Source: Candidatus Poriferisocius sp.
Lineage (GTDB): Bacteria > Actinomycetota > Acidimicrobiia > Acidimicrobiales > Bin134
Length of the DNA stretch: 64,000 nt
Assembly (NCBI RefSeq): GCF_965208475.1
Contig: NZ_OZ242338.1
Coordinates: 630,760-694,759, forward strand
Reading direction: 5' to 3'
Position 1 is the stretch's first letter; each line of letters opens with the position of its first letter. Below the pieces are notes generated by a model that was not told the origin of the DNA, searched no databases, and worked only from the letters and a program-made list of their open reading frames with translations. Shown here piece after piece: positions 2,296-36,989 of the stretch. A program made the position numbers and the translations under genes.

Positions 2296-2693
2296 AGCGG
2301 CTTTAGGTGCTCACACAGCGGCCCGAGCAGGGCTTCGACAAAGGCGTCGTCGCAGTAGAGCTTCTCCCCGGCCAGGAGATCGCCGGCGGCGTGCATCATC
2401 GACATGACCATGTGGCGGGTCTTCCCGTCGAGTTCGATCCAGTACTCCTGGATGGCGCACTGGTCGTTGGTCCACTCCCCCAGCACTCCGTAGCCGCTGA
2501 CCCGCTGAGCGAACAGCGGGTACTGCTCCAAGTAGAACGTCCGGGCCAGATCGCCGCCGGTGAAGCCCTTGCCCATCGGCCAGAACTCGTAGGTGGGCTC
2601 GTCCACCAGCGTGGCCAGCGTCCGTTCCGCATCGTTCTCAGCTTCCGCGGCAGCATGTTCCCGGGCCAAGTCCAAGATCTCCTGTGGGGTCAT
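2292..2693 (-). CDS. small NTF2/SnoaL-like fold protein (tentative)
   Basis: 133-aa ORF. Its size and pattern (N-terminal helix, then W/Y-rich beta region) resemble SnoaL-like proteins. No catalytic motif recognised. Confidence 0.5.
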   Translation of the reverse strand: MTPQEILDLAREHAAAEAENDAERTLATLVDEPTYEFWPMGKGFTGGDLARTFYLEQYPLFAQRVSGYGVLGEWTNDQCAIQEYWIELDGKTRHMVMSMMHAAGDLLAGEKLYCDDAFVEALLGPLCEHLKPL

Positions 2694-2760
2694 GGGCTCA
2701 GCCTAGATCGCCGATGCTGGGGCTGGTTGTTGTGGGCCTTCTCTGCGGTACGTTGCCCGA

Positions 2761-3903: not shown

Positions 3904-3954
3904 GAAAAGTACCGTTTGGGGGCAACGGCGGCGAGGGCTTCTGGCCAGACAAAC

Positions 3955-3976
3955 TGTCGCACCCTGTTTGTAGAGT
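3955..3976 (+). promoter_or_regulatory. RecA-NDp-like (PafBC-type) DNA-damage promoter driving a leaderless transcript
   Basis: TGTCGCAC (3955-3962), then N8, then TAGAGT (3971-3976), then 6 nt, then ATG at 3983. This fits the remembered mycobacterial consensus tTGTCRgtg-N8-TAnnnT. The -10 to ATG spacing fits a leaderless mRNA. Confidence 0.4.
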
Positions 3977-3982
3977 GCGCTC

Positions 3983-7746: not shown

Positions 7747-7753
7747 GGGCGGG

Positions 7754-9004
7754 CTAGCTCCACAGTGTGCAGATTGGGATGGCGTAGATACTGTCGCTGA
7801 GTCGGAACTTGGCTGGACCGGTATGCAGCACGGCTCCTGCCTTGAACTGGTCGCCGAGTTGGTCGCGCAGCCAGATCAAGTGTCGGGCGTCTCTCGCCGT
7901 GGGCGCGCTGTGGGCTTTGACCTCAATGCCGACAAGTCCACGTGCCCCTAGGTCGGCGACCAGGTCCACCTCGTGGCGGCCTTCACGGTCGCGTATGTGG
8001 TGATATAGGGGCCTGGTTGGGTCCACGACTGCTTCGGACCGAAGCTGGCTGGTGACGAAAGTGTCGATGAGGCGACCCAGTAGATTGCCGTCGTTCATGA
8101 CTACGTCGATGTCCGCACCGATAGCCGCACCCCATAGCCCTGCATCGGCGATGTACCGCTTCGGCCCGCGTGTGAGGCGCTTGAGGCGGTTTGTGCTCCA
8201 TGCTGGGAGTTCGGCGATTACCCCAATATCGGCTAGCAATTTCACATAGGAGCGGGACGTTCTCCGATTGATGCCCGCAGCCTCATCGAGAGTCGTGTCG
8301 TTGACGATTCCCGCAGAGTTCACGGCATAGGCTCGAAAGAACGCATTCATCCTCGCGAAATCGGGTCCGTTGCGCTGTCCAGGCTGACCGTGCGTGAACT
8401 GCTCGATGTAGCTGGCCAGCCAGCCGTCGCGAACTCTGCCTTGCAACTTTGTCGCCGGCTCTGGAAATCCACCGCGCAAGGCGATTTCTGCGTAGCCGCG
8501 CAAATCGGGAGGATCTAGCTCCGGTACGGGTAAATCCTCGGCCAGAAGACGCTCCAAAAAGGTGGGTCCATGGCGGGCAAGCTGCTCACGCACTGTCAAA
8601 GGATGCATGGCGACTCTGATCATCCGTCCCGTACCCGGCCACAGAGCCGGATCGATATCGGAGCGCACCGAGCCGGTCAGGATGAACCGACCAGGACGGC
8701 GCTCGCCGTCGATAGCCCGTTTGACCGCGCCGAGCACTCCGGGGCACTCCTGCCATTCGTCGAGCAGCACCGGCTCTGGCCGGTTGCGCAAAGCGGCGTC
8801 AGGATCAGCATTGAACGGCGCTGCCTCGCGATCCTTGTCAAGGCTCACAACGCTCGCAGCGTGCCGTAGCGCGGTCGTAGTCTTGCCAGTGGCCCGCGCC
8901 CCGGTGATCATTACTGCTGGTGCTGTGGCCAGCACTTCAGCGATCCATGGATCCACCAGGCGGGTCAGATAGCTGGCCTCAATCATTGAGTACCAGTCTT
9001 GCAC
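7754..9004 (-). CDS. AAA+ ATPase with C-terminal DUF4143 (PD-(D/E)xK-like) domain, COG1373 type
   Basis: Walker A ITGARATGKTT and Walker B VLLDEWQ. The C-terminal motif HEVDLVADLGARGLVGIEVKA follows the D...ExK pattern. The start may be M7 (8986). Its stop is 7 bp from the convergent SbcC-like stop. Confidence 0.85.
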   Translation of the reverse strand: MQDWYSMIEASYLTRLVDPWIAEVLATAPAVMITGARATGKTTTALRHAASVVSLDKDREAAPFNADPDAALRNRPEPVLLDEWQECPGVLGAVKRAIDGERRPGRFILTGSVRSDIDPALWPGTGRMIRVAMHPLTVREQLARHGPTFLERLLAEDLPVPELDPPDLRGYAEIALRGGFPEPATKLQGRVRDGWLASYIEQFTHGQPGQRNGPDFARMNAFFRAYAVNSAGIVNDTTLDEAAGINRRTSRSYVKLLADIGVIAELPAWSTNRLKRLTRGPKRYIADAGLWGAAIGADIDVVMNDGNLLGRLIDTFVTSQLRSEAVVDPTRPLYHHIRDREGRHEVDLVADLGARGLVGIEVKAHSAPTARDARHLIWLRDQLGDQFKAGAVLHTGPAKFRLSDSIYAIPICTLWS

Positions 9005-9104
9005 GCCTGTTACTGCTACTCATGCACACTTACCACTACCACTCCCGCACGGCCCTAATTGCTAAGTCTGCACATCGCAGGCAGTTGACTTGGAGCGGGC
9101 CGGA

Positions 9105-10622
9105 TCAGCCTAAGCGCTGGCGGAGGCGGAACTTCTCCACTTTGCCGTTACCGGTTCTAGGGAGTTCATCTATTGGCTCGATGGTGGTGGGCACCTTGTA
9201 GGGGGCCAGGGTGCCGTCGGTGTGGGTTCGCAGATCATCCTCAGTGGGGAGATCGCAGCCGTCGGCTACCACGATGAAGGCGGCCACCGTCTCGCCCAAC
9301 ACGGGGTCGGGGCGGGCTACCACGGCGATGTCGGCCACTGCGGGGTGGGTGCGGAGCGCGGTCTCCACCTCTATGGTGGACAAATTCTCTCCGCCTCGGC
9401 GGACGATGTCCTTTTGGCGGTCCACGAAATAGAGGTAGCCGTCGTCGTCCACGTAACCCAGGTCGCCGGTGCGGAACCAGTCGCCCGAGGTGGCCGCCTG
9501 GGTGGCTTCGGGATCTTCGATATAGCCGCTGAAGCCGATGGTGGACCGCAGGAAACAGATCTCCCCCGTCTCACCCGTCGGGGCCTCTGAGCCGTCGGGC
9601 AGGAAGATCCTCAGCACCGATCCCTCGAACGGCTTGCCCACCGAGCCAGGTCGGCGGGGCTCGTCCAGGCGGGTATAGGTGCCCGATCCGGCTTCGGTCA
9701 TTCCGTACCAGTCCATGCACGGCACCCCGTAGCGCTCTTCGATCTGCTCGATGATCGGAGCACAGCCCAGCGGGATCATCACCCGCAGCGAGTGTGATCT
9801 CTCGTGGGGACCGGGTGGCTGGGCCATCAAGATGTTGATGATGGGCACCAGGGTGAGGAAGTAGGTGGGGCGGTAGAGATCGACCAAGGCCCAGAAGCGC
9901 GACGCGGAGAATGTGCGCTGCATGACCACGCTGGCCCCCCGGCTGAGCGCCGACATGGCCCCGCCCATGGCGTTGCCGTGGAACAGCGGGGTCACCACCA
10001 GCGACCGGTCGGTATGGCTCAGGCCGAACATCTCCTCATAAGGCACCGCTCCCCCGGCGAACAGCTCCGGGCTCATCGGCACCGCCTTGGGCCTTCCGGT
10101 GGTGGTGCCCGAGGTGTAGAGCACGTTGCCCTCCACGAACCCGTCCACCGGGGGCAGATCCAGACCAGCGCCCTCCGGCGCCTCGCCGATGAGGTCGGCC
10201 AGCAGCAATGCCCCGTCCACCGGCTCGTCCACGCTCACCACCGCCTCGACCGCGTCCATACCCGCGGTCAGGGCGATGGCCCGCTCGGCCCGCTCAGCCT
10301 CGGCGAACACCAGACGGCATCGGGAGTGGTTGAGCACGAACTCCAACTCTGGATCGGTCCACTCCGGGTTGATGGGCACCCCGGCCAAGCCGATGGCCTG
10401 CATTCCCAGTTGGCACTCGATGTATTCGGGGCGGTTTTGCATCCAGATACAGGCTCGATCGCCCAAGCCCAGACCAAATCGGGTATGGAACTGGTGGGCC
10501 AGGGCCCCGCCGTGGGCAGCCAGCTCGCGGTAGGTGCGGTGACCGTCCTGCTCGGTGAGCACGGCCAGCTTGTCGGGCCAGGTGCGGCTGAAGTCCCGGA
10601 CGACGTCGTACAAGGTCGGCAT
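9105..10622 (-). CDS. AMP-dependent acyl-CoA synthetase/ligase
   Basis: 505 aa with LYTSGTTTGRPKAV, YGMTEAG, WFRTGDLG and GKVEK motifs. Confidence 0.9.
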   Translation of the reverse strand: MPTLYDVVRDFSRTWPDKLAVLTEQDGHRTYRELAAHGGALAHQFHTRFGLGLGDRACIWMQNRPEYIECQLGMQAIGLAGVPINPEWTDPELEFVLNHSRCRLVFAEAERAERAIALTAGMDAVEAVVSVDEPVDGALLLADLIGEAPEGAGLDLPPVDGFVEGNVLYTSGTTTGRPKAVPMSPELFAGGAVPYEEMFGLSHTDRSLVVTPLFHGNAMGGAMSALSRGASVVMQRTFSASRFWALVDLYRPTYFLTLVPIINILMAQPPGPHERSHSLRVMIPLGCAPIIEQIEERYGVPCMDWYGMTEAGSGTYTRLDEPRRPGSVGKPFEGSVLRIFLPDGSEAPTGETGEICFLRSTIGFSGYIEDPEATQAATSGDWFRTGDLGYVDDDGYLYFVDRQKDIVRRGGENLSTIEVETALRTHPAVADIAVVARPDPVLGETVAAFIVVADGCDLPTEDDLRTHTDGTLAPYKVPTTIEPIDELPRTGNGKVEKFRLRQRLG

Positions 10623-10662
10623 CGCCGGGCAGCCTAGTGATGCCGGCGCCGCGAGCGCTGCT

Positions 10663-11445
10663 TCACGTCACCACGTCGGCCGCGCCTCCGTCGATCCGCA
10701 GATGGGCGCCGTGGATCTGGCGGGCTCGGTCGCTGCACACGAACGCCACCAACTCCCCCACGTCGGACACGGTGGCGATGCGCCCGGTCGGCGTGGGCAT
10801 TGCCTCGGTGGTCACATGGCGCTCAATGTCGGCCCAATCCGTGGAGCGGCCCGCCCTCGCGGCCTGACGAGTCCACATCTCCACCAACTCGGGGGTGGCA
10901 ATCGCACCGGGGCTAACGCAGTTCACCGTCACGCCGGTGCCGGCCAGTTCCCGGGCCAGGCTGACTGTCATGGCCGGCAGCGATCCTTTGGCCGCGTAGT
11001 AGCCCGGGATGCGATCACCAGGGCGGGTAGCTCCCACCGTGGACACCAGCACGATCCGGCCCCAACCCTGATCCCTCATCGCCGGCACCATGAGCCGGGT
11101 CATCCGCACCGCGGTGAGCACGTTGCGGTTGTAGGCGTCGATCCACACCTTGGCGTCATCGTCACCCCAGGTGCCGCCAACCGCCACCCCGTAGTTGTTG
11201 ACCAGGATGTCCGCCGGGCCGCACTGCTCGGCCACCGCCTCAGCTCCTGCGTCGGTGCAAATGTCCCCCCACACCGCCCGAGCCGGCGGCCCCAACTCGT
11301 CAGCCAGCCAGTCGGCCTGCCCTTCCTCGAACCCGTGGACCACCACCTCGGCGCCCTCGTCGGCCAGCACCCAAGCCATCCCACTACCCGTCCCCCGGTA
11401 GCTTCCCGTTACCAGCGCCACCCGTCCTGCAAGACCTAGATCCAT
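10663..11445 (-). CDS. short-chain dehydrogenase/reductase (SDR)
   Basis: LAGRVALVTGSYRGTGSG Rossmann motif, YYAAK catalytic motif and NCVSPG. The start is placed at MDLGL (11445) rather than the upstream alternative start at 11493. Confidence 0.9.
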   Translation of the reverse strand: MDLGLAGRVALVTGSYRGTGSGMAWVLADEGAEVVVHGFEEGQADWLADELGPPARAVWGDICTDAGAEAVAEQCGPADILVNNYGVAVGGTWGDDDAKVWIDAYNRNVLTAVRMTRLMVPAMRDQGWGRIVLVSTVGATRPGDRIPGYYAAKGSLPAMTVSLARELAGTGVTVNCVSPGAIATPELVEMWTRQAARAGRSTDWADIERHVTTEAMPTPTGRIATVSDVGELVAFVCSDRARQIHGAHLRIDGGAADVVT

Positions 11446-11550
11446 ATCCCGACACTGCCACAACAGCGCCAAGCCAGACATGATCGACACCACGCTCAGC
11501 TCTATATGACCCCCAAACCATCACATCCCGGTAAGTAGTGTTGAGAGGCA

Positions 11551-12648
11551 ATGAGCAGTTCGACGGGGCGGTTGTTCCGGGTCACGACGTTTGGGGAATC
11601 CCATGGCGGCGGCATCGGCGCGGTGGTGGACGGGTGCCCGCCCCGGCTTCCGCTGACCGCAGAGATGATCCAGCACGATTTGGACCGTCGGCGGCCCGGT
11701 CAGAGCCGGCTCACCACCCTGCGGGACGAGGCCGACGGGGTGGAGTTCCTCTCGGGGGTGTTCGAGGGCCACACGCTGGGATCGCCCATTGCCATGGTGA
11801 TGGGCAACACCGATGCCCGGCCCAGCGCCTATGAGGACTTCAAGGACGTCTACCGTCCCTCCCATGCCGACTACACCACAGAGGCCAAGTACGGCATCCG
11901 CAACTGGCAGGGAGGGGGGCGGGCCAGCGCCCGGGAGACCATCGGCCGGGTGGCGGCTGGGGCCATCGCCCGCCAGCTCTTGAAGACCGCAGCCAACATC
12001 GAGGTTCTGGGTTGGGTCCGCCAGGTGGGCGCTATTGCCGCTGATGTCGATCTGGATGCGGTGACTCTGGCCGATGTGGAGGCCGATGCCACCCGATGCC
12101 CGTCTCCCGAGCACGCCGAGGCCATGACCGAGGCCATCGAAGCGGCCCGTCGTGACGGCAACTCGCTGGGCGGGATTGTCGAATGCGTGGCCCGAAGGGT
12201 GCCCCCCGGCCTGGGCGAACCGGTGTTCGACAAGTTGGAGGCCGATTTGGCCAAGGCTGCCCTGTCGTTGCCCGCGGCCAAGGGCTTCGAGATCGGCTCG
12301 GGCTTCGCGGGGGTGACCATGACCGGCCGGGAGCACAACGACCCGTTCATCCCCGGCCCCGACGGCCAGCCCCGCACCGCATCCAATCGCTCCGGTGGAG
12401 TGCAGGGCGGCATCAGCAACGGCGAGGACATCGTGATCCGGGTGGCCTTCAAGCCCACCGCCACCATTGCATCGGCCCAGGACACCGTCGACCGCGACAA
12501 CAACCCGGTGACACTGGCTGCCCGTGGTCGCCACGACCCCTGCGTTCTACCCCGGGCCGTGCCGATGGTCGAAGCCCAAGTGCTGCTGGTTTTGGCCGAC
12601 CACTGGCTACGCCAGCAAGCCGTCGATGTGATCGACTGCGGCGGCTGA
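11551..12648 (+). CDS. aroC: chorismate synthase
   Basis: [34 protein letters not shown] and RHDPCV motifs. 365 aa. A GAGAGG Shine-Dalgarno sits upstream. Confidence 0.95.
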
Positions 12649-12652
12649 TTCC

Positions 12653-13438
12653 ATGACCGAAGCCCCCCGCAATCCCGTCACCCCCGAAGACCAGCGCCTC
12701 CTAGTCGAGGTCGACGACCGTATCGCCGCCATCACGCTGAACCGGCCCGAAGCCCGCAACGCCATGTCTAAGCGGATGCGCAACGACATACACGCCGCGC
12801 TGAAGGCGTGCGATGCCAACGACGGGGTGGACGCCATCATTCTTACCGGGGCTGACCCCGCGTTCACCGGCGGGGTAGACCTCCGGGAGGTGGCCGCCGA
12901 GGGGCCGCCGGGACCGGGCGGCGACAGGCGGCAGGCCAAGGATCCCGCCCGGGCATGCCGGGAAACATCCAAGCCATTGATCTGCGCGGTGAACGGCACC
13001 TGCGTTACCGGGGGCTTGGAGATCGCCTTGAGCTGCGACTTCATCGTGGCCTCTGAGCGGGCCCGGTTTGCCGACACCCACGCCAAGGTCGGGGTGATCC
13101 CGGCATGGGGAATGACCGCCCTACTTCCCCGGGCGGTGGGCAAGCGCATGGCCAAGGAGATGACCGCCACCGCCCGCTTCGTTGAGGCCGAGGAAGCCCT
13201 CCGCATCGGCCTGGTCAACCATGTCGTCCCCCACAGCCGGCTAATGGCCCACGCGAGGAGGCTGGCCGGTCAAATAGCCGCTGCCACCACCCCGGCGACA
13301 CCGGCCACCCTGCGAATCTACGATGCCGCCGACGGCATGAGCTTCTCCGAGGCCAAGGCATTGGAGGAGGAGCTCATGCGCAACTGGAAAGTGGACACCG
13401 ACTACATGGAGCGCCGCGGCCTGGGAAAGGGCGGCTGA
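12653..13438 (+). CDS. enoyl-CoA hydratase/isomerase (crotonase) family
   Basis: ITLNRPEARNAM and GADPAFTGGVDLRE oxyanion-hole motif. 261 aa. Confidence 0.9.
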   Translation: MTEAPRNPVTPEDQRLLVEVDDRIAAITLNRPEARNAMSKRMRNDIHAALKACDANDGVDAIILTGADPAFTGGVDLREVAAEGPPGPGGDRRQAKDPARACRETSKPLICAVNGTCVTGGLEIALSCDFIVASERARFADTHAKVGVIPAWGMTALLPRAVGKRMAKEMTATARFVEAEEALRIGLVNHVVPHSRLMAHARRLAGQIAAATTPATPATLRIYDAADGMSFSEAKALEEELMRNWKVDTDYMERRGLGKGG

Positions 13439-13439
13439 T

Positions 13440-14324
13440 TTGCTCAGCCCCGCGCAGTTCAGCCTGTTCATGCCCCAGATGCGTATGGACATGGCCACCA
13501 TTGAAGAGCGGGTGCGAACCGCAGAGGCCTGCGGATTCCACAAGATCGACCTCATGGATCATCTGAATCCACCCCTGCTACCCGCTTCGCCCATGTACGA
13601 CGCCTTTGTGGTGGCGACCGCGGTAGCGGCCTGGACCGAGCGGGTGCGGATCGGACACATGGTGCTGTGCGGGCAGTTCCGCCATCCGGCGCTGCTGGCC
13701 AAGATGGCCGTCAGCCTCGACCACTTCAGCGGAGGCCGTTTCGATTTGGGCATCGGCTGGGGTTCGGTTCCCGATGAGCTGGGCCGGTTCGGCCTCGGCG
13801 ACGAACCGCCGGCGGTGCGGGCCGCTCGCCTGCGGGAGACCCTTGAGGTGGTTCAGGCCCTGCTCACCGGTGAGCCCATCGACTACCAGGGCCGTTTTTT
13901 CCAGCTGGAAAACGCCCAGCAGCAGCCCACCCCGGTGAACGGTCACATTCCGATCTTGATCGGCGGGGCCGGCCGCAAACTCACCATGCCGCTGGTGCGG
14001 GACTTCGCCGACTGGTGGAACTGCCCGGTCTACGGCATGGCCGAGCTAGACGAACTTATCCCGCTGGCCGGCGATGCCCGCCTGTCGGTGCAGCGAGCCA
14101 TCGGCTTGGCCCCTTCGTCGGCAGCCCGAGACGAGGTAGTGGCCACCGCTCAGCGCCGTTTCGGAGATTGGTCCCTAGTGGCGGGAACCCCCGACGAGGT
14201 GGCTGGGGCCCTGAACGCCGACCGGGCCATGGGCGCCGAGCAGTTCGTGCTTCAGTTCACCGACTTCGCCTCCCCAGAGACGCTCAGTCTGTTCGCCGCT
14301 GAAGTCATGCCCGCGGTGGCTTAG
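13440..14324 (+). CDS. luciferase-like (LLM class) flavin/F420-dependent oxidoreductase
   Basis: FSLFMPQ start, GRFDLGIGWG motif and LLTGEPIDYQGRFFQL. TTG start 1 nt after the upstream stop. Confidence 0.8.
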   Translation: MLSPAQFSLFMPQMRMDMATIEERVRTAEACGFHKIDLMDHLNPPLLPASPMYDAFVVATAVAAWTERVRIGHMVLCGQFRHPALLAKMAVSLDHFSGGRFDLGIGWGSVPDELGRFGLGDEPPAVRAARLRETLEVVQALLTGEPIDYQGRFFQLENAQQQPTPVNGHIPILIGGAGRKLTMPLVRDFADWWNCPVYGMAELDELIPLAGDARLSVQRAIGLAPSSAARDEVVATAQRRFGDWSLVAGTPDEVAGALNADRAMGAEQFVLQFTDFASPETLSLFAAEVMPAVA

Positions 14325-14377
14325 ATCGCGCTAACCGCCTTCTCCCAGAGCAGGGCACCACCATATGATGCCGACGC

Positions 14378-15088
14378 ATGGAAGCTGATGCGCGGGGCCG
14401 CCGAGCAGGCCGATTCAAGCAGGCTCTCTTGGCCGGCGAAGACGTGGCCATCATCGCCGAGATCAAACGTCGGTCGCCGTCCAGAGGCAATCTGAACGCC
14501 GGCCTCGATCCGGCCGATCTGGCGGCGGCCTACCGCGACGGCGGAGCGGCTTGCCTGTCGGTGCTCACCAACGAGGAAATGTTCGGCGGCAGCGGTGATG
14601 ATCTGGCTGCCGCGGCCGAGGCCTCCGGACTGCCGGTACTCCGCAAGGACTTCATTACCACCGACGAAGACGTCCACGAGTCCCATCAGATGGGCGCCGA
14701 TGCCCTGCTGTTGATAGTCGCCGATCTCGACGCGGCGCAATTGGCCGAGTTGCACGAACTGGCCCTGTCGTTGGGCATGGACGTGCTCACCGAGGTCAAG
14801 TCGGAAGCCGAGCTGGAAGCCGCAATCGAAGCCGGTGCCGACATCATCGGGGTCAATCAGCGGGAGAAGCCCAAGAGTGCGGCGTTCACCATGGACTACC
14901 AGCGGGCCAAGCGCATGGCGCCGCTGTTCCCAGCCCATGCGGTGAAGGTGGCTGAGTCCGGCATCGCTGTTCCCGGCGGCACCACCATGGCCGAGGTGCG
15001 AGATGCAGGCTACGACGCCGCCCTCATAGGCGAGGCCCTAGTGACGTCCGGCGACCCGGTGAAGCGCCTCAGAGAATTGCTGGCTTAA
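14378..15088 (+). CDS. trpC: indole-3-glycerol-phosphate synthase
   Basis: IAEIKRRSPSRG, CLSVLTNEEMFGGS, LRKDFI, IGVNQR and ESGI motifs. Confidence 0.9.
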   Translation: MEADARGRRAGRFKQALLAGEDVAIIAEIKRRSPSRGNLNAGLDPADLAAAYRDGGAACLSVLTNEEMFGGSGDDLAAAAEASGLPVLRKDFITTDEDVHESHQMGADALLLIVADLDAAQLAELHELALSLGMDVLTEVKSEAELEAAIEAGADIIGVNQREKPKSAAFTMDYQRAKRMAPLFPAHAVKVAESGIAVPGGTTMAEVRDAGYDAALIGEALVTSGDPVKRLRELLA

Positions 15089-19157: not shown

Positions 19158-22016
19158 TTAACTTGTCCGCTCCCCCGAGCGCTCAATAGCCCGCACATCC
19201 GTCCCCAAGTAAGAAGCAATCACCAAAGGGTCGTTCCGCACCTCCTCCGGCGACCCCTCAGAGATCACCGACCCTGCCTCCAGGCAGTAGACCCGGTCGC
19301 TGATGCTCATGACCAGCGGCATATCGTGCTCGATCACCACCACCGCCGCGCCCAGCTCGGCCTGGATGCGCCGGATAAGCGGCCCGAAGGCCTCGCTCTC
19401 CCGCTGGGCCACCCCGCCGGTGGGCTCGTCCAGCAGAAGCACTTTGGCGTCCACCGCCAACAGGCTGGCCAACTCCACAATGCGCCTAGTGCCGGTGGAC
19501 AGGTTGGAGATGAAGTGGTCGGCATAGCGGCCCAGGCCCACGAAGTCCATGAGTCCGTCCACATCGGCCCGCTTGCGCCGCTCCATTCCCGGCGACGGCG
19601 GCACTCCCAGCAGCGACGGAACCAGAAGCGAGCGGTCCCGGGCCTCCATCGAAACCATCAGCGCCTCTCGCACCGTGAGGTCGGGATACAGCTTGGCGTG
19701 CTGGAACCCCCGGCCCAGGCCGCCCCGGTGGCGGCGATATGAGGGCAGATGGGCGATATCCCGCCCCAGCACTTCCACTTCGCCTCGGAACGGCACGAAG
19801 CCGCTGATGGCGTTCATGAGGGTGGACTTGCCCGCTCCGTTGGAGCCGATCAACCCAACTAGCTCTCCTTGGTAGACATCGATGGAAACATCGTCCACCG
19901 CCACCTTGCCCCCAAAATGCACGTGAACATCCCGCACCGACAGCCACGGGTGCCCCTCCTCCACCGCCACAATGCGCTCGCTGGTGATGGGCACCGGCTT
20001 GTCCATCGCCGAGACCGGCACGGGTATGTCCCGGGCCGCCATTCGCTCATCGGCCAACCCCAGCAAGAAGTCGCGCAACTTGTAGATGAGCTGCATGATC
20101 CCGCCGGGGAAGTACATCAGCAACAACAGCAGCCCCACCCCGGACGTGAGCAATCGCACTTCGTCGCTGGCCCCGAAGATGGCCGGGATGCCCTTCACCC
20201 ACAGCACCCCCAGCAGAGGGCCGGCAATCGATCCCAATCCCCCGATGATGGCGATGGCAATGACGTTGATCGACTCGTTGGCGTTGAACAGCACTTGAGG
20301 ATTGATGGTGGGCTCGCCGGTGATGATCAGGCCCCCGCCCAGCGCGGCCAGCCCCCCGGCCAGGGTGAACGAGATGAGCTTGATGCGGCTGCTCGACACG
20401 GTGGACGCGGCTGCCATGTCCTCGTTGTCGCGCACCGCGATCATCATCCGCCCGATCCCGGTCTTCCGCAGGTGGGCCACCATCCACACGGCTAGGGCCA
20501 AGAGCACCAGAACCAGGAAGAAGAACGACTTGCGGGAGGCGGTGAAATCGAACGGGCCCCACACCGGTGGGATGACCTTGGGCGAGTTCGTGGCCCCTTG
20601 GGTGAACACGTCCTGCACAAAGATCCACGACATGGCGGCGATGGCGAACGCCAGCGTGGTCACCGCCAGCATCAGGCCCTTGACCCGCAGCGCGGGCACG
20701 CCGATGATGAAGGCGGTGATCATGCCCGCGGCCACTGCGATCACCATGGCCACTCCCCAGGGCAGGTCGAACGACCAGTCCCACCAGTCGAACGGAATGG
20801 GGATGTCGCTGTTCTCGGTCAGTGCCACCACGGTGAGACCGCCAACGCCGGCGAAGGCGAACTGGCCCAAGGAGAGCTGGCCCGCCCAGCCGGTGAGCAT
20901 CGACACCGACAAAGCGATCAGCGCGAAGCCCAGAATCCGGGTCCAGGTGTAGAGGTTGGAGTTCTTGTTGAGAAACAGCCCGAGCAGCACAAGGCCGCCG
21001 AAGAGGGCCCCGAAGCCGAACCGGGTCAGGTTGCGGATGTACCAAAGGTTGCGGAGCCGCTCGGGAACGGCCTTCACCTTGGGCGACAGCGACCACTCCC
21101 CCTCGTCCTCGCTGCCCCGGCGGGCGAACAGCACTGTGATCACCAAGATGGCAATGAAGAAGATCACATCCACGGCCTCGCGGATATCCCGGTCCACGTT
21201 CCCCTGGAACAGCCGCTGGAAGATGCCCAGGCCGATGCCGGCGATCAGCGTGACCCACAGCGAGCGCATTCGGGCAATCAGCGCCACCAGCAGCACCCGC
21301 AAGAGCAGGCCAGGCCCGAGGCTGGCGGTTCCCGCGGCGGCCGCGCTCACCCGAAACGGCGCCAGCAGGATCAGGGTCACCCCGGCTAGCCCCCCCCCGA
21401 TGGTCCACACCATGGTGGACACCCGACGCACGCTGATGCCGAACAGCCGCCCGGTGTCGGCGTTCTCCGCCGAGGCCCGGATGGCCAGCCCGTAGCGGGT
21501 GCGGCCCAAGAACAGCGCCAAGATCACGATCACCAGCGGCACCACGATCACCACCAGCAGCTCGCGCCCCCCGATGCGGAGATGATCGGTGACCTCCCAC
21601 CGGAAATCCTGGGCGGTGAGCTTCGGGGGCAGGGGGAACGGCCCCGGCCGCGACACGTCGGGCAACTCGATGGAGGCGAAGATGGCCAGTTGCGCCACCC
21701 CCAAGGTGGCGATGAACAGCACCAGGCGCGGCGAGTTGAACAGCCGACGCACCACCACCAGCTCGGTGACCATGGCGAAACCGGCCGCGGCCCCGATCGA
21801 CAGGAAGAACGCCACCCAGTAGGGCACGTCGTAGCGGAACGTAAGCATGGCCATGAGCGCCACGCCGAAGCTGCCGATCTCGGCGTGGGCAAAGTTCAGC
21901 ACCCCGGTCGACCGGTAGATCAGCACGAACCCTGCCGCCAGAGCCGCCACGATCAACCCCTGAACGCTGCCCGAGAACAAGTCCTGCTGGGAGATCTCCC
22001 AGCCGATGTCGATCAT
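19158..22016 (-). CDS. fused LIV-type ABC transporter: LivH-like permease + LivM-like permease + LivG-like ATPase
   Basis: A single 952-aa ORF. Two successive polytopic permease regions are followed by a C-terminal NBD (GLIGSNGAGKSTLMN encoded at 19812-19850, LSTGTRR signature, LLLDEPTGG Walker B). Confidence 0.85.
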   Translation of the reverse strand: MIDIGWEISQQDLFSGSVQGLIVAALAAGFVLIYRSTGVLNFAHAEIGSFGVALMAMLTFRYDVPYWVAFFLSIGAAAGFAMVTELVVVRRLFNSPRLVLFIATLGVAQLAIFASIELPDVSRPGPFPLPPKLTAQDFRWEVTDHLRIGGRELLVVIVVPLVIVILALFLGRTRYGLAIRASAENADTGRLFGISVRRVSTMVWTIGGGLAGVTLILLAPFRVSAAAAGTASLGPGLLLRVLLVALIARMRSLWVTLIAGIGLGIFQRLFQGNVDRDIREAVDVIFFIAILVITVLFARRGSEDEGEWSLSPKVKAVPERLRNLWYIRNLTRFGFGALFGGLVLLGLFLNKNSNLYTWTRILGFALIALSVSMLTGWAGQLSLGQFAFAGVGGLTVVALTENSDIPIPFDWWDWSFDLPWGVAMVIAVAAGMITAFIIGVPALRVKGLMLAVTTLAFAIAAMSWIFVQDVFTQGATNSPKVIPPVWGPFDFTASRKSFFFLVLVLLALAVWMVAHLRKTGIGRMMIAVRDNEDMAAASTVSSSRIKLISFTLAGGLAALGGGLIITGEPTINPQVLFNANESINVIAIAIIGGLGSIAGPLLGVLWVKGIPAIFGASDEVRLLTSGVGLLLLLMYFPGGIMQLIYKLRDFLLGLADERMAARDIPVPVSAMDKPVPITSERIVAVEEGHPWLSVRDVHVHFGGKVAVDDVSIDVYQGELVGLIGSNGAGKSTLMNAISGFVPFRGEVEVLGRDIAHLPSYRRHRGGLGRGFQHAKLYPDLTVREALMVSMEARDRSLLVPSLLGVPPSPGMERRKRADVDGLMDFVGLGRYADHFISNLSTGTRRIVELASLLAVDAKVLLLDEPTGGVAQRESEAFGPLIRRIQAELGAAVVVIEHDMPLVMSISDRVYCLEAGSVISEGSPEEVRNDPLVIASYLGTDVRAIERSGERTS

Positions 22017-22065: not shown

Positions 22066-24306
22066 TCAACCGCCCTCGGCGCCCAGGAACACCGCCCGCA
22101 CCAGGTCGTCCCGCTCGGCCAGCTCTTGGGCCGGACCCTCGAAGCGAACCCGCCCCTTCTCCATGAACACCGCCCGCTCGGCCACGCTGAGCGCCACGTT
22201 CAGCGACTGCTCCACGATGATCATGGTCAGCCCGGTTGCCTTCAGCTGCTCTACCACTTCCAGCAGCTCCTGCACCACCACTGGTGCCAGGCCCAGCGAC
22301 AGCTCGTCGATGAGCAGAATCTCGGGCTCGTGCATCAAGCCCATCCCGAAGGCCAGCATCTGCTGCTGGCCTCCCGACAGGTCGCTGGCCGCCTGGCCGC
22401 GCTTTTCCCGCAACGCGCCGAACACGTCGTACACCCGCTCGACCCTCCGGAATACCTCGTCCTTCTCTGCTTTTGTGGACAGCATGGTGGCTAGGAGGTT
22501 CTCCTCCACCGTGAGGCCGGGGAACACCCCGGCACCGCCCCGCACCTGCACGATGCCCTGCTTGAAGCGCAGTTCGGCGTCGGCGTAGGTGATGGTGCGC
22601 CCGTTGAGACGGATGGCCCCACGGTCGGGCGCCCCCAGCCCGCTGACCGCCCGCAGAAGGGTGGACTTGCCCGCCCCGTTGGTTCCCAGCAGGGCCAGCG
22701 TCTCGCCCCGGCGCACTTCCAGGCCGCAGTCGAACAGCACCTGCACCGGGCCGTAGCTGTAGTCCAGCCCCCGCACCTGGAGCACCGGGATGTCGTCGGG
22801 ATGCTCCGACATTCGCCGCATCTCCTCCTGCTCCTCCACCAGCTCGCTCACCGCCAAGGAGATGTCGCGCTTGATGTAGCGGGAGCCGTAGGCCACCAGC
22901 AGGCCGCCGATGATCGAGGCCGGCGGGGCCACCACGCTGATGGCCAGCCTCTCTCCATGGGCATCGCTGATGGACCCGGCGATGATGCTGCCCATGAACC
23001 CGCCCATCAAGAAGATGAACACCGGCAGCAGGGCGAAGGCCTGGGCCCGCATCCGGTAGGGCGCCACCGCGCCGATGGTGGGCGCGGCGGCCACGAAGGA
23101 GGCCGACGTACACCCGTTGGCCAAGCTGATGCCGAAGATCATGAGGGCGGGCTGGTGGAACCTCATGGCGATGAGCACCAAAACGCCCGACATGATGATG
23201 AGCATGCCCGCAGTCCGCACCATCTTGGAGGGGTCCTCCCGGAACATTCCATCGAACTTGAATCCCGAGATGGGAATGGCCACCAGGCTGGCCAACCACA
23301 CCAGCGACGTCACCCAGCCCCGCTGGAAGGCGTCATAGCCGTACTCGTCTTTCAGCATCAGGTTTAGCTGGCTGGGAAGCGTCACAAGTGCGAAACCCAG
23401 GGTGCCCACGCCCACGGCGAGGAAATAGAAGGTCTTGACCTTTTTGAGCCGGGCGAAGGCGGTGGACATCGACACCGGCAGGTCCGAGCCAATGGGCGGC
23501 ATCTCATACTGCTCGCCCAAAATGGCCTGCTGCTCGTTGCCTGCTCGGGGTGGCTCCTTCAGGATCAGCGACAACAGCGCCAGGCCAATCGGAGGGATGG
23601 CGAAGATGTAGAACGCCCAGCGCCAGCCGTCATCTCCGCCGGCGATGGATGCAATCGCTCCGGCCAAGACCGGGCCGATTAGCAGGCCGATGGGCCGGCC
23701 CATGCCCTCGAAGGCGAAAATCCGAGCTCGGGCGGGAATGGGGTATGTGTCAGTGAGCAGCGAAGAATGCACCGGCAAGCGATTGGCCTGGCCCGCACCG
23801 GTGAGAACTCTGGTCCAAAAGTACTGGAACGGGTTCTTCACCAATCCGGTGAGGAACACGCTCACCGCCCACCCCGCAGTGGCCACGGGCACGATGAGGG
23901 TGCGCTTGACCCGGTCGGCCAGCCAGGCCAGCGGCACCGCCCCCAGCACCAGGGCCACACCGCCGAACGAGGAGATGCCCAGGATCACCGTGTCGGACAC
24001 GCCGAAGGCGTCTTGGAGGTCGGGCAGGAGCACGGCGATCGCCACCCTGTCGAACTCGTCGATCACATTGAGCAAGAAGAGCACAACGAGCATGCTGGCC
24101 CCGCCGGCCCGTATCCCCTGCCGGAGGGTCATCGGCTCTTCGCCCACCCCGGGCAGCAGGTCGTCGGGCAGCACCACCACCTCCGACTTGGCCGCCTGCT
24201 CGGCTAAGCGCTTGGACTCCTCTTCGAATACCGCAGAGGCCAGGTTGGCCGGGTCGTCCAAGGCTGGCTCGCCTGGAGCAGACTCCCCGTCCACAGGCTT
24301 ATCCAT
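22066..24306 (-). CDS. MFS-type polytopic domain fused to LivF-like ABC ATPase
   Basis: A single 746-aa ORF. The N-terminal ~480 aa are multi-TM with MFS motif-A-like LAWLADRVKRTLIV. An acidic linker ELVEEQEEMRRMSEHPDD follows. The NBD has GTNGAGKSTLLRAVSG, LSGGQQQML and LLIDELSLGLAP. Confidence 0.85.
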   Translation of the reverse strand: MDKPVDGESAPGEPALDDPANLASAVFEEESKRLAEQAAKSEVVVLPDDLLPGVGEEPMTLRQGIRAGGASMLVVLFLLNVIDEFDRVAIAVLLPDLQDAFGVSDTVILGISSFGGVALVLGAVPLAWLADRVKRTLIVPVATAGWAVSVFLTGLVKNPFQYFWTRVLTGAGQANRLPVHSSLLTDTYPIPARARIFAFEGMGRPIGLLIGPVLAGAIASIAGGDDGWRWAFYIFAIPPIGLALLSLILKEPPRAGNEQQAILGEQYEMPPIGSDLPVSMSTAFARLKKVKTFYFLAVGVGTLGFALVTLPSQLNLMLKDEYGYDAFQRGWVTSLVWLASLVAIPISGFKFDGMFREDPSKMVRTAGMLIIMSGVLVLIAMRFHQPALMIFGISLANGCTSASFVAAAPTIGAVAPYRMRAQAFALLPVFIFLMGGFMGSIIAGSISDAHGERLAISVVAPPASIIGGLLVAYGSRYIKRDISLAVSELVEEQEEMRRMSEHPDDIPVLQVRGLDYSYGPVQVLFDCGLEVRRGETLALLGTNGAGKSTLLRAVSGLGAPDRGAIRLNGRTITYADAELRFKQGIVQVRGGAGVFPGLTVEENLLATMLSTKAEKDEVFRRVERVYDVFGALREKRGQAASDLSGGQQQMLAFGMGLMHEPEILLIDELSLGLAPVVVQELLEVVEQLKATGLTMIIVEQSLNVALSVAERAVFMEKGRVRFEGPAQELAERDDLVRAVFLGAEGG

Positions 24307-24428
24307 AGCTGCCCCTCATCGGGGCAAGACACTAGGCCATCGGCTCTACGCCGCGCACGACAGCGGCTGTTCACAGCGGACGACTTCATCGGCTACTGTT
24401 CAACGCCAAGCTACGGAGAGGGGTAACC

Positions 24429-26126
24429 GTGTCTCGAAGGATGCTGAAGTTGTGGGGTGCGCTGCTTGTGCTCGCGCTGGTCGCCGCCGCCTGTGGAGGC
24501 GGAAACGACGATGACGGCGGAGGCGCGGCGCCCGCCCCTTCGGAGCCCACCGCCGCTCCGGCCCCCGACGGGCCCGATGCCCCCGACGACGCCGGCGATG
24601 GCGACGAACCCGCCCCCGACACACCCGATGCCCCCGACGAGCCCGCTCCCGACGACCCGTCGGGTGAATCCGGCGAGCCATCCGAACCGGCCCCCGATGA
24701 ACCGGTGGACATCGGCTTCGACGAGCCCCGAGGCGAGCTGTTCACCGAGTTCCACAGGACATTCGACCGCGCGCACCCGTTCCAGCCCCTAGACGTGTTC
24801 TGCACAGCCACGCCTGATCCAGACTCACCGCCTCAGGCCACCGATGCGGGCATCACCGAGGACTCCATCACCATCGTCCACCTCCGCACCAAGCTCGAGG
24901 AGCTGGAGGGCATAGGTTTCGCCGTTCCGGTGGGCGATCCCAAGGACATGTTCGAAGCGTTTACCAAGGCCATCAACGACGACTGCAATGGGATCTGGGG
25001 TCGCCAAATCAACCTCCGCCTTGTGGAAGTATCGGCATTGGGCGGCGGCGGCGAGGACATCGACACCTTGCGCAACCAAGCCTGCATCGAGGCCACCGAG
25101 GATCACAACGCGGTGATCGTGACCAACACCACCGGCTTCCAGGGCACGGCCATCTTGTGCATAACCGCCGACCACGACACCCTGTTCCTTACCACCCAGG
25201 GCAACCCCGGCCACTTCCATGAACAGGCCAGCGGCCTGCTGTACTCGCTCAGCCCTGTCGCCGAGGACTCGGTGGTCAACATGACCCAGGCGGTCATCGA
25301 CACCGGCGGCCTGGACGGCAAGACAATCGCGGTGATCTGGCCCGACACCCCCGGGCAACCCGAGACCGTGCAAACCGGGATCATCGAGGTTTTGGAGGCC
25401 GCAGGCTACGACATCGCCGTAGCCGAGCAGATCGGCTGCGGCGGGGAAACCACCTGCCGCGACGGCAACGACATCGCAGTGGAGCGAATGCTCGAGGAGG
25501 GCGTTGACGTGGTCTTCCCCGCCCTCAACGTGCTCAGCCTGCCCCAGTTCATCAACGAGATGATCAACCAGGGATTCGCCCCCGGCGACGTTCAGTTCTA
25601 CAACTCTGACTTCAACAGCCAGGCCGGCGACTTGGTGTCGGGCAAGGTGGCCCAGTTCGGAGGAAACGCGGCCGCTGAGCTCTACAACGGCACGATCATC
25701 ATTGATGACGCCCCCACCGGGAACTTCCGCTCCGAGGATCCTGTGCTCAGCTTCAACGCGCCTCTGAACATCATGTGCAACGAGACATACGCGGCCAACA
25801 GCGCCATCGGCGCCCGGCACATACGTGACGTGTACGGGAGCTACGACAGCGCCTACGGCATGACCTCCACGGTGTGTACCGAGATGCGCATGGTGGCCCG
25901 GGCCATCTACGACGCCGGTCCCAACCCCACCCGCCAAGACATCTACAACGCTTTTGCCAACCTGGGTTCGGTGGACATCCAGCACCAGCTTCCCGCCACA
26001 TTCGGCCCCGACAAGTTCGGCGCCCCCGACGTGGTGACCGAGTTGGTGTTCAACTTCCCGTGTCCCGCCGATCCCGACATTCCCACCTGCGTCCAGCAGA
26101 CTGCCCCCTACCGAAGCCTCGGGTAG
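24429..26126 (+). CDS. lipoprotein, type I periplasmic-binding-protein (LivK-like) ABC substrate-binding protein with acidic Pro-rich linker
   Basis: Signal plus lipobox LVLALVAAAC. About 90 aa of A/P/D/E/G low complexity precede a ~450-aa binding-protein-like domain. It is divergent from the LIV ABC genes. Confidence 0.75.
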   Translation: MSRRMLKLWGALLVLALVAAACGGGNDDDGGGAAPAPSEPTAAPAPDGPDAPDDAGDGDEPAPDTPDAPDEPAPDDPSGESGEPSEPAPDEPVDIGFDEPRGELFTEFHRTFDRAHPFQPLDVFCTATPDPDSPPQATDAGITEDSITIVHLRTKLEELEGIGFAVPVGDPKDMFEAFTKAINDDCNGIWGRQINLRLVEVSALGGGGEDIDTLRNQACIEATEDHNAVIVTNTTGFQGTAILCITADHDTLFLTTQGNPGHFHEQASGLLYSLSPVAEDSVVNMTQAVIDTGGLDGKTIAVIWPDTPGQPETVQTGIIEVLEAAGYDIAVAEQIGCGGETTCRDGNDIAVERMLEEGVDVVFPALNVLSLPQFINEMINQGFAPGDVQFYNSDFNSQAGDLVSGKVAQFGGNAAAELYNGTIIIDDAPTGNFRSEDPVLSFNAPLNIMCNETYAANSAIGARHIRDVYGSYDSAYGMTSTVCTEMRMVARAIYDAGPNPTRQDIYNAFANLGSVDIQHQLPATFGPDKFGAPDVVTELVFNFPCPADPDIPTCVQQTAPYRSLG

Positions 26127-26195: not shown

Positions 26196-27056
26196 GTGAA
26201 TAGTCTGAGGCGCCGCCGGGGCCGGCGATCGTTGGGGTTTGCCGCCGCGGGCCTAGCCCTAGCTCTGGCCCTCCTCGCGGCGGCCTGCGGAGACACCGAG
26301 ACATCGACGATCGACAGCGCCGGGTTGGAAACGGCGCCCACTGCCGCATCAAGCAGTACACAAGCCCCTGATCGGCCCGAAGGCGAACCCGCCCCTGCCT
26401 CCGAGTCGGGCTCCACCCAAGAATCCGCCTCCACCCCTTCGCCTGCTGCCACCCAAGCCCCACTGCCAACCCCTGTCTCGACACCGCTGCCCACCACCGA
26501 CCCCGCAACGGAGCCGACACCGCTACCCGCCCCTGAGTCCCCGGCGGAACCGGCGCCGGAGCCCCCGCCGCCCCCCACCCCAGAACCGCCACCGCCACCC
26601 CCGCCGCCTCCCACCCCGGAACCGCCACCGGTCCCCGATTCAGATCTGCCCTCGGTGGAGGTGGTGAATGTGGCCACTGGGGCCACGGTGAACCTGGCCG
26701 GTTTCGCGCCGGCTGATCGTCCCATAGTGCTGTGGTTCTGGGCCCCCCATTGATCCACCTGCAACCGGGAAGCCCCCGGCGTCGAGCAGTTCGCTCGACA
26801 AAACGCCGACAAGCTCACCGTCGTCGGAGTGGGAACCCAGGACTCCCTGGGACAGGCCGAAGATTTCGTGAGCCGCCACGGAACCACATTCACCATGCTG
26901 TGGGACCGGACATTCCAATCCTGGAACCAGCTGGGCATAACCGGCCAGCCCGCTGGGATGCTCATGAACCGCTACGGTCAGATCATCGACCAGTGGAGGG
27001 GCGACATCCCCCGCGGCCAGGTTCTGGACGCCGTAGCAGAATTGAGCTCAACCTGA
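26196..27056 (+). CDS. TlpA/ResA-like thioredoxin-fold lipoprotein, probable selenoprotein (UGA at 26751-26753 read as Sec)
   Basis: The ORF track splits it into 26196-26753 and 26829-27056, which are in the same frame. Lipobox LLAAAC and a Pro-rich linker. VLWFWAPH-TGA-STCNREAP aligns to WAxWCxxCxxEAP. Clear thioredoxin-fold sequence continues after the TGA. Confidence 0.7.
26759..26789 (+). promoter_or_regulatory. SECIS-like hairpin downstream of in-frame UGA (copy 1)
   Basis: Stem CCGGG (26765-69), loop AAGCC, stem CCCGG (26775-79), with an outer CTGC/GCAG pairing. The stem begins 14 nt after the U of UGA. Confidence 0.45.
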
Positions 27057-27057: not shown

Positions 27058-27645
27058 ATGAATCTGCCCCGAGCACCCAGAACCCGGCTCATAGCGCTTG
27101 CCATCGCCGTGGCCCTTGGGGCCGCGGCTTGCGGCGACAGCACCGCCCCTCCCACCGCCACACCGGCAACCACAGCCCCGACCGAGGCCCCGGCCCCGGC
27201 AGCCGAATCGGCGCCGCAGACCGAGGCCCCGGCCCCGGCGTCAGATCTGCCGTCGGTGGATGTGGTGGATTTGGCCACTGGTGACACGGTGAACCTGGCT
27301 GGTTTCGCGCCGTCTGATCGTCCCATAGTGCTGTGGTTCTGGGCGCCCCATTGATCCACCTGCCGCCGGGAAGCCCCCGGCGTCGAGCAGTTCGCTCGAA
27401 AGAATGCCGACAAGGTCACCGTCATCGGAGTGGGTGCCCAAGACAGCCTTGGGCTGGCCCAAGCCTTCGTTCAGTCCACCGGAACCACCTTCACCATGCT
27501 CTGGGATTCGACATTTGAATCTTGGCGACAGCTGGGTATTTTCGGTCAGCCCGCAGGGATACTGCTGGACCGCAACGGCGCAATCCTCAGCTCATGGCGA
27601 GGCGGTATACCACAGAGCCGGGTGCTGGAAGCCGTCGGCGCCTAG
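27058..27645 (+). CDS. TlpA/ResA-like thioredoxin-fold lipoprotein, probable selenoprotein (UGA at 27352-27354 read as Sec), tandem paralog
   Basis: The ORF track splits it into 27058-27354 and 27430-27645, which are in the same frame. Lipobox ALGAAAC. VLWFWAPH-TGA-STCRREAP. The start is 1 nt after the upstream stop. Confidence 0.7.
27360..27390 (+). promoter_or_regulatory. SECIS-like hairpin downstream of in-frame UGA (copy 2)
   Basis: 7-bp stem CGCCGGG (27364-70), loop AAGCC, stem CCCGGCG (27376-82), with an outer CTGC/GCAG pairing. The stem begins 12 nt after the U of UGA. Confidence 0.5.
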
Positions 27646-36911: not shown

Positions 36912-36989
36912 CGGGCTGTGGCGCAGCTTGGTTAGCGCGTCGGTCTGGGGGACCGAAGGTCCCGGGTTCAAATCCCGGCAGCCCGACCA
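36912..36989 (+). tRNA. tRNA-Pro (anticodon GGG), CCA encoded
   Basis: Hand-folded cloverleaf. Acceptor CGGGCTG/CAGCCCG. D arm GCGC-AGCTTGGTTA-GCGC. Anticodon arm TCGGT-CTGGGGG-ACCGA. Variable loop AGGTC. T arm CCGGG-TTCAAAT-CCCGG. Discriminator A plus CCA. Confidence 0.9.

Follow-up and report, generated by a model that had tools for sequence, protein, structure and literature searches.

The 64,000-nt stretch of Candidatus Poriferisocius sp. DNA analysed here (contig NZ_OZ242338.1, positions 630,760 to 694,759; hereafter the window) carries on its minus strand an open reading frame (ORF) that joins a membrane domain of the major facilitator superfamily (MFS) to an ATP-binding cassette (ABC) ATPase of the LivF type. 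ABC and MFS proteins form the two largest superfamilies of transporters, the former driven by ATP and the latter by gradients. The initial annotation had read this ORF as a single uninterrupted frame of 746 residues, and so it is. Its parts, in window coordinates, are the following; TM denotes transmembrane helices and AF2 an AlphaFold2 model.

22066..24306, minus strand: MFS-LivF fusion ORF, 746 aa, ATG start, stop codon TGA at 22066-22068, uninterrupted
24100..24306, minus strand: cytosolic N-terminal extension, aa 1-69, with an amphipathic helix at aa 19-41 and the LPDDLLPGVG motif
24142-24171, minus strand: LPDDLLPGVG motif, aa 46-55 (alignment A1)
22873..24099, minus strand: 12-TM MFS domain, aa 70-478, Spinster/ACS-like (Pfam MFS_1, AF2 helices, PDB sequence matches)
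23902-23922, minus strand: motif A LADRVKR, aa 129-135; the other key MFS residues are D86-R87 in TM1, R166 and Q173 in TM4, and D186
22783..22872, minus strand: helical linker, aa 479-508 (KRDISLAVSELVEEQEEMRRMSEHPDDIPV), a continuation of TM12 (AF2, alignment A1)
22069..22782, minus strand: LivF-type ABC nucleotide-binding domain (NBD), aa 509-746 (Pfam ABC_tran, NCBIfam LivF/UrtE, Foldseek)

The permease proposed at residues ~60-480 was borne out. Pfam MFS_1 matches aa 76-352, extending to about residue 452, well above its cut-off (E 6e-36, 124.5 bits against 33.4), and ABC_tran matches aa 527-668 (E 6e-26). The AF2 model, a single chain built on 26 sequences (pLDDT 80, pTM 0.75), places 12 TM helices between residues 70 and 478, with a long TM6-TM7 loop at 249-290. 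These helices, together with hydropathy and loop charges, give the 6+6 arrangement and N-in/C-in topology of MFS proteins, which fits the requirement of a cytoplasmic ATPase at the C-terminus. The N-terminal extension is poorly ordered, with low AF2 confidence and a helix at 19-41. Within its motif, L50, L51, P52, G53, V54 and G55 are invariant in alignment A1, and LPDDLLPGVG occurs in 120/120 close family members and in 9/25 distant fused members. We considered the LPGVG motif as a mark of every fused protein and rejected this idea, as the motif is confined to the ortholog group and the nearest paralogs. No solved structure with the combined MFS-ATPase architecture was found by Foldseek.

Several long ORFs overlap at the locus, and chance ORFs are expected in DNA of 66% G+C. 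The fusion ORF is nevertheless the coding one, because at least 120 full-length homolog clusters (59-95% identity, 96-100% coverage, 718-847 aa) carry both Pfam domains; this holds for all of the best 120 full-protein clusters. In the wider searches the MFS part alone was the query, so that ordinary LivF proteins could not swell the counts. Among 1.84 billion representatives, phmmer returned 183 50%-identity representatives at E<=1e-30, and the order MFS_1 then ABC_tran persists in full-length representatives at 30-36% MFS identity. An MFS-only profile retrieved 1,429 90%-identity clusters at E<=1e-20, the top 120 of which all carry ABC_tran. Moreover, when one genome for each GTDB species was scanned with an MFS-only alignment, 254 species proved to have relatives, and the best 80 loci were analysed. 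Most of the 80 carry the name Acidimicrobiia or that of a lower rank (Poriferisocius, Hopanoidivorans, Aldehydirespiratoraceae, Microthrix, Ilumatobacter), about a dozen have unresolved labels only (Actinomycetota, Actinomycetes, 'bacterium', marine group Sva0996), and none of the 80 was assigned to another class.

These 80 loci and 2 metagenome loci were then re-analysed by tblastn and stop-to-stop frame tracking, which bears directly on the frameshift or stop that the initial annotation had wished to see checked at the junction. MFS and LivF share one open frame in all 81 testable loci, 79 of them from species-representative genomes; the 82nd is cut by a contig end. Many of the in-frame loci are complete chromosomes, long-read ones included. 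Orthologs are found in metagenome-assembled genomes of Ilumatobacter and Candidatus Microthrix, and a paralog-type member in the Ilumatobacter fluminis genome assembly GCA_004364865.1, which we take to be that of a cultured isolate. We therefore rejected the reading in which a frameshift or a lost stop merged two genes during sequencing or assembly: given the 81 in-frame junctions, the complete chromosomes, the I. fluminis member and thousands of metagenomic copies, it has next to no chance of being correct. Judged from these sequences, the fusion is real, ancient and conserved across the Acidimicrobiia.

The C-terminal third is a complete LivF-like NBD, as had been proposed. It has Walker A GTNGAGKST at 541-549 (nt 22660-22686), the signature LSGGQQQ at 643-649, Walker B with the catalytic Glu (ILLIDE, 663-668), SLGL at 670-673 as the D-loop, and VEQS at the H-loop position. 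Walker A, the signature, Walker B with its Glu and SLGL are all invariant in alignment A1. VEQ(N/S) replaces the H-loop His in E. coli LivF as well. Against NCBIfam, aa 509-745 scored best with UrtE (3e-53, 180.5 bits) and LivF (2e-51, 174.5 bits), the next model being LptB (134 bits); both equivalog cut-offs (285.8 and 441 bits, respectively) were missed. The ATPase domain is thus of the LivF/UrtE subtype (HAAT family, TC 3.A.1.4) and an equivalog of neither. Its top Foldseek match is 1ji0 (39% identity, TMt 0.91), by its entry title an ABC-transporter ATPase of T. maritima and presumably a LivF/TM1139-type protein. Two members of the alignment, P0012 and P0040, have a Gly/Asn/Gln-rich insertion of 50-70 residues in the LivF helical subdomain (A1 columns ~683-752), and P0040 has an additional 36-residue insertion in the TM5-TM6 loop of its MFS domain.

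In a sequence search of the PDB, the MFS part matched the bacterial Spinster homolog HnSpns best (6e8j, E 6e-20) and also human SPNS1, the ACS-family D-galactonate/H+ symporter DgoT, and SPNS2, with E-values for the solved structures of 6e-20, 4e-15 and 1.5e-13; the human SPNS match is confined to the N-half. The best NCBIfam model is the D-galactonate-transporter subfamily TIGR00893 (97.1 bits against a cut-off of 395). The extra domain, on whose MFS-like character the initial annotation had staked its reading, is a true MFS domain, nearest to Spinster proteins and DgoT. In the alignment to HnSpns, D41/R42 correspond to D86/R87, motif-B R122 to R166, motif-A D87/R91 to D131/R135, and D142 at the end of TM4 to D186. 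The fusion protein itself matches HnSpns, SPNS1, SPNS2 and DgoT (6e9n/6e9o) at the motif-A D..R, the TM4-end Asp, the RxxxG motif B of TM4 and the TM1 D-R pair, the last of which varies within the family. The motif quoted in the initial annotation, LAWLADRVKRTLIV, spans aa 126-139 and is MFS motif A, which lies in the TM2-TM3 loop; within PLAWLADRVKR, D131, R132 and R135 are invariant in A1. All 120 close members have the charge relay D131/R135/D186; among distant fused members its residues are kept in 24/27, 27/27 and 25/27, respectively, and the C-half counterpart of motif A is also retained (SD...GER). With these the domain keeps what MFS proteins require to alternate between inward- and outward-facing states, including the relay by which they lock the inward-closed one. 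Motif-B Arg166 is kept in all family members checked, and Arg87 is invariant in the ortholog group and variable among paralogs.

Two features set the domain apart from HnSpns and DgoT, beyond the fact that those proteins have no ATPase. Position 86, the TM1 Asp, is D, E or P even among close relatives. In addition, HnSpns E129 aligns to Gln173, a position that is Gln in 110/120 close members and Lys, Arg or Gln in distant fused and unfused relatives, and never Glu. The Gln of the E-to-Q DgoT structure 6e9o falls in the same column; we take the mutated TM4 residue of DgoT to be E133. In HnSpns, E129 is the master switch for intracellular protonation, and the E129Q mutant is trapped in the inward-closed state (PMC9440201). 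The MFS domain thus has no counterpart of the proton-coupling TM4 glutamate of its nearest characterised relatives. We considered loss of this residue as a consequence of the fusion and rejected it, since stand-alone relatives lack the Glu as well and the change is a trait of the subfamily. Membership in the Spns (TC 2.A.1.49) or ACS families was likewise rejected, on the absence of the TM4 Glu and on the missed TIGR00893 cut-off.

The two domains meet in the acidic linker, which had been placed at about nt 22800-22860. The placement was close: the acidic segment ELVEEQEEMRRMSEHPDD covers aa 487-504 (nt 22795-22848). In the AF2 model, TM12 and the linker form one helix, 460-501, that runs into the ATPase domain. 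Six linker residues do not vary in A1 (D481, I482, E488, E491, E492 and E495). Of these, D481 also persists in 26/27 distant fused members (one gap), some of which have only ~27% MFS identity, and the mean conservation of the linker RDISLAVEELLEEQ is 0.78, equalling that of the TM helices. The acidic linker is therefore a conserved helix rather than a loose spacer, and in this it differs from the variable spacers of incidental fusions. At the DNA level the linker reads GGAGGAGCAGGAGGAGATG, with a strong Shine-Dalgarno-like run directly 5' of Met497, followed by Met500. The run, GGAGGAGCAGGAGGAG (window 22802-22820, minus strand), comes from the codons of the acidic linker. It could permit internal initiation in this genome, so that the ORF would also, or mainly, yield free LivF with the normal LivF N-terminus; the working ATPase would then be a common stand-alone LivF, and the fusion protein secondary. 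We consider this very unlikely: Met497 (M/L/T/H/A) and Met500 (M/I/T/A) vary among orthologs, GAG-rich DNA is unavoidable given the invariant Glu residues, the frame is never broken at the junction in the 81 loci, and purifying selection acts on the MFS domain throughout.

The genes that flank the fusion complete the transport system:

19158..22016, minus strand: LivH-LivM-LivG (LivHMG) fusion, 952 aa, with LivH at ~21057-22016, LivM at ~19977-21026 and LivG at ~19161-19961
24429..26126, plus strand: substrate-binding lipoprotein, 565 aa, divergent from the fusion gene, with a LivJ-type two-lobe domain
24307..24428, no strand: divergent intergenic region of 122 bp between the fusion and binding-protein genes

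The LivHMG gene starts 49 nt past the MFS-LivF stop codon, with a G-rich ribosome-binding site ahead of it, and its product contains two BPD_transp_2 domains, ABC_tran and the LivG-specific BCA_ABC_TP_C. The earlier suggestion that the next gene supplies both LIV permeases and LivG was thus correct. LivH, LivM and LivG share one frame in 70/74 related loci. The frame is broken in the other four (L002/L042 at 10220-13082, L021 and L052); in L002 the gene caller reported no more than a C-terminal LivHMG piece of 513 aa, along with two small antisense ORFs. The four breaks may stem from frameshifts, pseudogenes or assembly errors.

The binding protein has a signal peptide with lipobox Cys22, followed by a disordered tether of ~70 residues rich in Pro, Asp, Glu and Ala (aa ~23-95, window 24495-24704; pLDDT <50 for aa 19-92), and its mature domain contains ten invariant Cys (alignment A4). 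It scores 31.3 bits with Pfam Peripla_BP_6, 0.4 bit below the cut-off of 31.7, and its homologs carry PF13458. No sequence match was found in the PDB; the Foldseek matches of its AF2 model (pLDDT 79) share 10-17% identity with it and are LivJ-type binders of a generic kind, for Leu/Ile/Val, aromatic acids and urea. The family is narrow, with 381 clusters at E<=1e-5 among 8,000 candidates scored. The gene is adjacent to the fusion in 80/82 loci, divergent in 72 and upstream on the same strand in 8, and the order binding protein, MFS-LivF, LivHMG is kept across the 80 genome-scan loci. The intergenic region is presumed to be a promoter/operator region. A riboswitch or other known RNA was sought there and no Rfam family matched; the sole RNA-family match of the window is a tRNA-Pro (anticodon GGG, 36912-36989, plus strand).

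Two BPD_transp_2 domains, a LivG-type NBD with BCA_ABC_TP_C and a LivJ-fold binding protein are co-encoded with the LivF-type domain, and the locus is a three-gene, six-module ABC importer of the hydrophobic-amino-acid/urea (HAAT, LivFGHMJ) type; this co-encoding holds in 70-80 of the 82 loci. LivJ/K-LivHMGF and UrtABCDE have the same BPD_transp_2 pair, LivG-type ATPase with BCA_ABC_TP_C, LivF-type ATPase and Peripla_BP_6 binder. Unlike in those systems, LivF has an N-terminal 12-TM MFS domain here and LivH, LivM and LivG form one polypeptide; the binding protein is also ~150-200 aa larger than canonical HAAT binders, Cys-rich and very divergent. The proteins fall below the LivF, LivG and Urt equivalog cut-offs, so that the substrate is not assignable in this way. 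Assignment from the binding protein was rejected because the PDB sequence search was empty and the fold matches were generic, and assignment from the window neighbours (aldo-keto reductase, GcvT and thioredoxin-like genes) because the context varies across orthologous loci.

The initial annotation had asked whether the fused architecture always lies next to a LivHMG fusion. LivHMG is the usual partner, but this did not hold for all paralogs. In one pattern, LivH-LivM (692-718 aa) accompanies an MFS-LivF-LivG protein (999-1020 aa) and a binding protein; in a second, MFS-LivF accompanies LivH-LivM, a separate LivG and a binding protein; in a third, MFS-LivF, the binding protein and LivHMG occur with the binding-protein gene lying between the others. 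A second paralog, from a Poriferisocius-like genome, and the I. fluminis member follow the pattern of the window. Domains were checked in 12 full-length members that are distant or paralogous, and in every one MFS lies N-terminal to LivF. The six modules always occur together, and MFS-to-LivF is the sole junction constant across the cassettes, the others being reshuffled.

Some paralogous MFS-LivF cassettes have catabolic genes as neighbours (L087 at 8001-14600, L088 at 8001-14671 and L090 at 1160-7760). These neighbours include a GntR/FCD regulator, a 2-hydroxyacid dehydrogenase (2-Hacid_dh), an altronate/galactarate dehydratase (GD_AH) and PhyH; a glycoside hydrolase 4 (GH4), an FGGY kinase, a DeoC-like aldolase and a LarA-like protein; and a nucleoside hydrolase (IU_nuc_hydro). 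Because these are neighbours in sugar-acid, carbohydrate and nucleoside catabolism, the family is probably not limited to branched-chain amino acids, and we suggest that it radiated over several solute classes beyond them.

The pattern of conservation bears on what the MFS domain does. Among orthologs, identity is 54-57% for MFS, 50-52% for LivH/LivM, ~71% for both ATPases and ~45% for the binding protein, so that MFS evolves at about the rate of LivH/LivM. Within the MFS domain, conservation is 0.76 for the cavity helices TM1/4/7/10, 0.80 for the gating helices TM2/5/8/11 and 0.67 for the lipid-facing TM3/6/9/12, the most conserved helices being TM2, TM7 and TM11 (0.85-0.89). Of the positions that are invariant in orthologs and variable in paralogs, 22 lie on inner helices and a single one on an outer helix (out of 245 inner and 86 outer positions), in a comparison that comprises 23 distant fused sequences and is biased by the higher baseline conservation of the inner helices. 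Arg87 is among them and corresponds to the Arg that contacts substrate in HnSpns (Arg42) and DgoT. This inner-helix pattern is what a specificity-determining binding cavity would show, and the MFS domain is constrained like a working carrier.

These data are difficult to reconcile with a passive anchor or assembly scaffold, that is, an MFS domain that no longer binds or transports anything and merely holds LivF at the membrane or stabilises the complex, comparable to the TMD0 domains of some eukaryotic ABC proteins. As LivH, LivM and LivG are fused, the one subunit that would otherwise be soluble is LivF, the proton-switch residue is missing, and the TM1 Asp position is D, E or P among close relatives, all of which would suit an anchor. 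Nevertheless, twelve TM helices are excessive for such a function. A docking scaffold also predicts the reverse of what we found, namely conserved outer helices; here conservation is highest in the motif-A relay and the gating helices and lowest in the helices that face the lipid, and cavity residues show ortholog-specific invariance. Moreover, MFS-LivF-LivG proteins retain the MFS domain even though their LivF is already tethered through its fusion to LivG, which argues that the domain is not a mere membrane tether. We regard a passive anchor as improbable.

We favour a reading in which the MFS domain is more than a relic or an anchor. More specifically, we propose, at somewhat less than an even chance, that it acts as a ligand-binding, conformationally active sixth module, either driven by the LivF-LivG dimer or gating it. 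In this importer the binding protein captures a solute outside the cell, LivH-LivM-LivG provides both permease domains and one ATPase, and LivF, the other ATPase, is encoded only as the C-terminal part of the MFS fusion. On our reading, LivF would pair with LivG beneath LivH/LivM, with the MFS domain alongside in the membrane, joined through the stiff extension of TM12. The MFS domain would bind a ligand, and its inward- or outward-facing state would be coupled to the ATPase cycle through the TM12-linker helix. Two forms of this mechanism can be envisaged. In the first, the MFS domain would sense a solute or the state of the membrane and switch ATP hydrolysis on or off. It would then be comparable to the C-terminal regulatory domains of MetN, ModC and MalK; such domains are not known in LivF and LivG. 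In the second, the ATPase pair would also power the MFS domain as a further translocation path. The full version of this second form, in which closure and opening of the LivF-LivG dimer drive, via the rigid TM12-linker helix, the rocker-switch of an MFS domain devoid of the Spns/DgoT proton-coupling Glu, so that one ATPase pair serves two pathways (LivHM and MFS), seems to us improbable; it would be the first hybrid of a primary (ABC) and a 'secondary' (MFS) transporter.

Several points weigh against a conformationally active module. The contact of the MFS domain with LivH/LivM and its coupling to ATP hydrolysis are what we infer, the geometry between the domains is an AF2 prediction only, and a fusion, once formed, can persist without mechanical coupling. 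No ligand could be assigned to the binding protein or to the MFS cavity from PDB sequence and fold comparisons. Stand-alone MFS relatives exist, they presumably work as ordinary carriers, and the TM4 glutamate is missing in them too (Q, K or R), in addition to the baseline bias already mentioned for the cavity positions.

The same relatives favour a different interpretation, in which two independent transporters share one chain and the MFS domain acts as a conventional secondary carrier of some metabolically related solute, with no conformational coupling to the ATPase. It might serve for efflux of a product or overflow metabolite, or for low-affinity uptake of the same solute, and be a uniporter or otherwise coupled; the fusion would only secure co-expression, 1:1 stoichiometry and co-localisation. 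The stand-alone relatives, at ~33-37% identity, have non-ABC neighbours, the domain shows every hallmark of a working MFS carrier, its cavity positions differ between paralogs in the way a genuine substrate site should, and Rosetta-stone fusions of functionally linked proteins are common. On the other hand, a tethered carrier does not account for a linker that is short, helical and conserved in sequence across paralogs, as D481 illustrates, nor for the lack of any fission in the 81 loci and for the invariance of the MFS-LivF junction alone. In addition, the canonical proton-coupling Glu is absent, which raises the question of what would energise an independent active carrier. We therefore view independent carriage as unlikely, although it is an alternative to be taken seriously.

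Several other systems offer partial parallels to the fusion. The half-transporters of type IV exporters likewise have a membrane domain ahead of the NBD, with the last TM helix leading straight into NBD strand 1. Unlike in those exporters, the membrane domain here has the MFS fold and the NBD is of the importer (LivF) type with its own canonical membrane partners; full-length Foldseek alignments to exporters were poor (TM-score 0.27, root-mean-square deviation >20 A). The ArsAB arsenite pump and the membrane domain of LmrA share the concept of a secondary-capable carrier associated with an energising or modulating ATPase. In ArsAB, however, ArsB falls outside the MFS and ArsA outside the ABC ATPases, the two are not covalently fused, and there is no parallel pathway dependent on a binding protein. 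The C-terminal domains of MetN (C2), ModC and MalK illustrate how an extra domain on the NBD chain could respond to a solute and keep the NBD dimer from closing (trans-inhibition); they are small, soluble and C-terminal, whereas the extra domain here is a 12-TM membrane domain at the N-terminus. Finally, in LplT-Aas an MFS lysophospholipid flippase is fused or coupled to a cytoplasmic, ATP-using acyltransferase/acyl-ACP synthetase of the same bacterial pathway, but its partner is an enzyme rather than a transport ATPase, and there is no second permease.

An observation unrelated to the transporter concerns the tandem thioredoxin-fold lipoprotein genes at 26196-27056 and 27058-27645 (both plus strand). 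In each, a TGA in frame (26751-26753 and 27352-27354) takes precisely the place of the first Cys in the redox motif, WFWAPH-TGA-STC (U-x-x-C), and good sequence continues in frame past both. When the second gene was read through with Cys substituted, AhpC-TSA (7e-13) and Redoxin matches spanned the TGA. A GC-rich hairpin, CCGGG-AAGCC-CCCGG, starts 12-14 nt past each TGA. Both genes are candidates for selenocysteine proteins with a bacterial selenocysteine insertion sequence (SECIS) element.

In the full-text literature we found no description of, or experiment on, an MFS-LivF or MFS-ABC fusion, a search whose scope excluded most subscription journals and TCDB; PMC3924187 mentions neither. The databases already hold members of the family under automatic names such as 'ATP-binding protein', 'MFS transporter', 'branched-chain amino acid transport ATPase' or 'ABC-type branched-chain amino acid transport ATPase component/sugar phosphate permease'. 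For annotation, our results imply that the substrate is probably not always an amino acid. The system is also experimentally tractable, as the whole machine is encoded by three genes and has a member in I. fluminis. The maintenance of the MFS-LivF junction through deep paralog divergence and reshuffling of the other subunits points to a functional dependency that lies outside current models of either family. Should the MFS domain gate the ATPase, ABC importers would have a regulatory domain of a new kind; should the ATPase drive the MFS domain instead, ATP could power the MFS rocker-switch.

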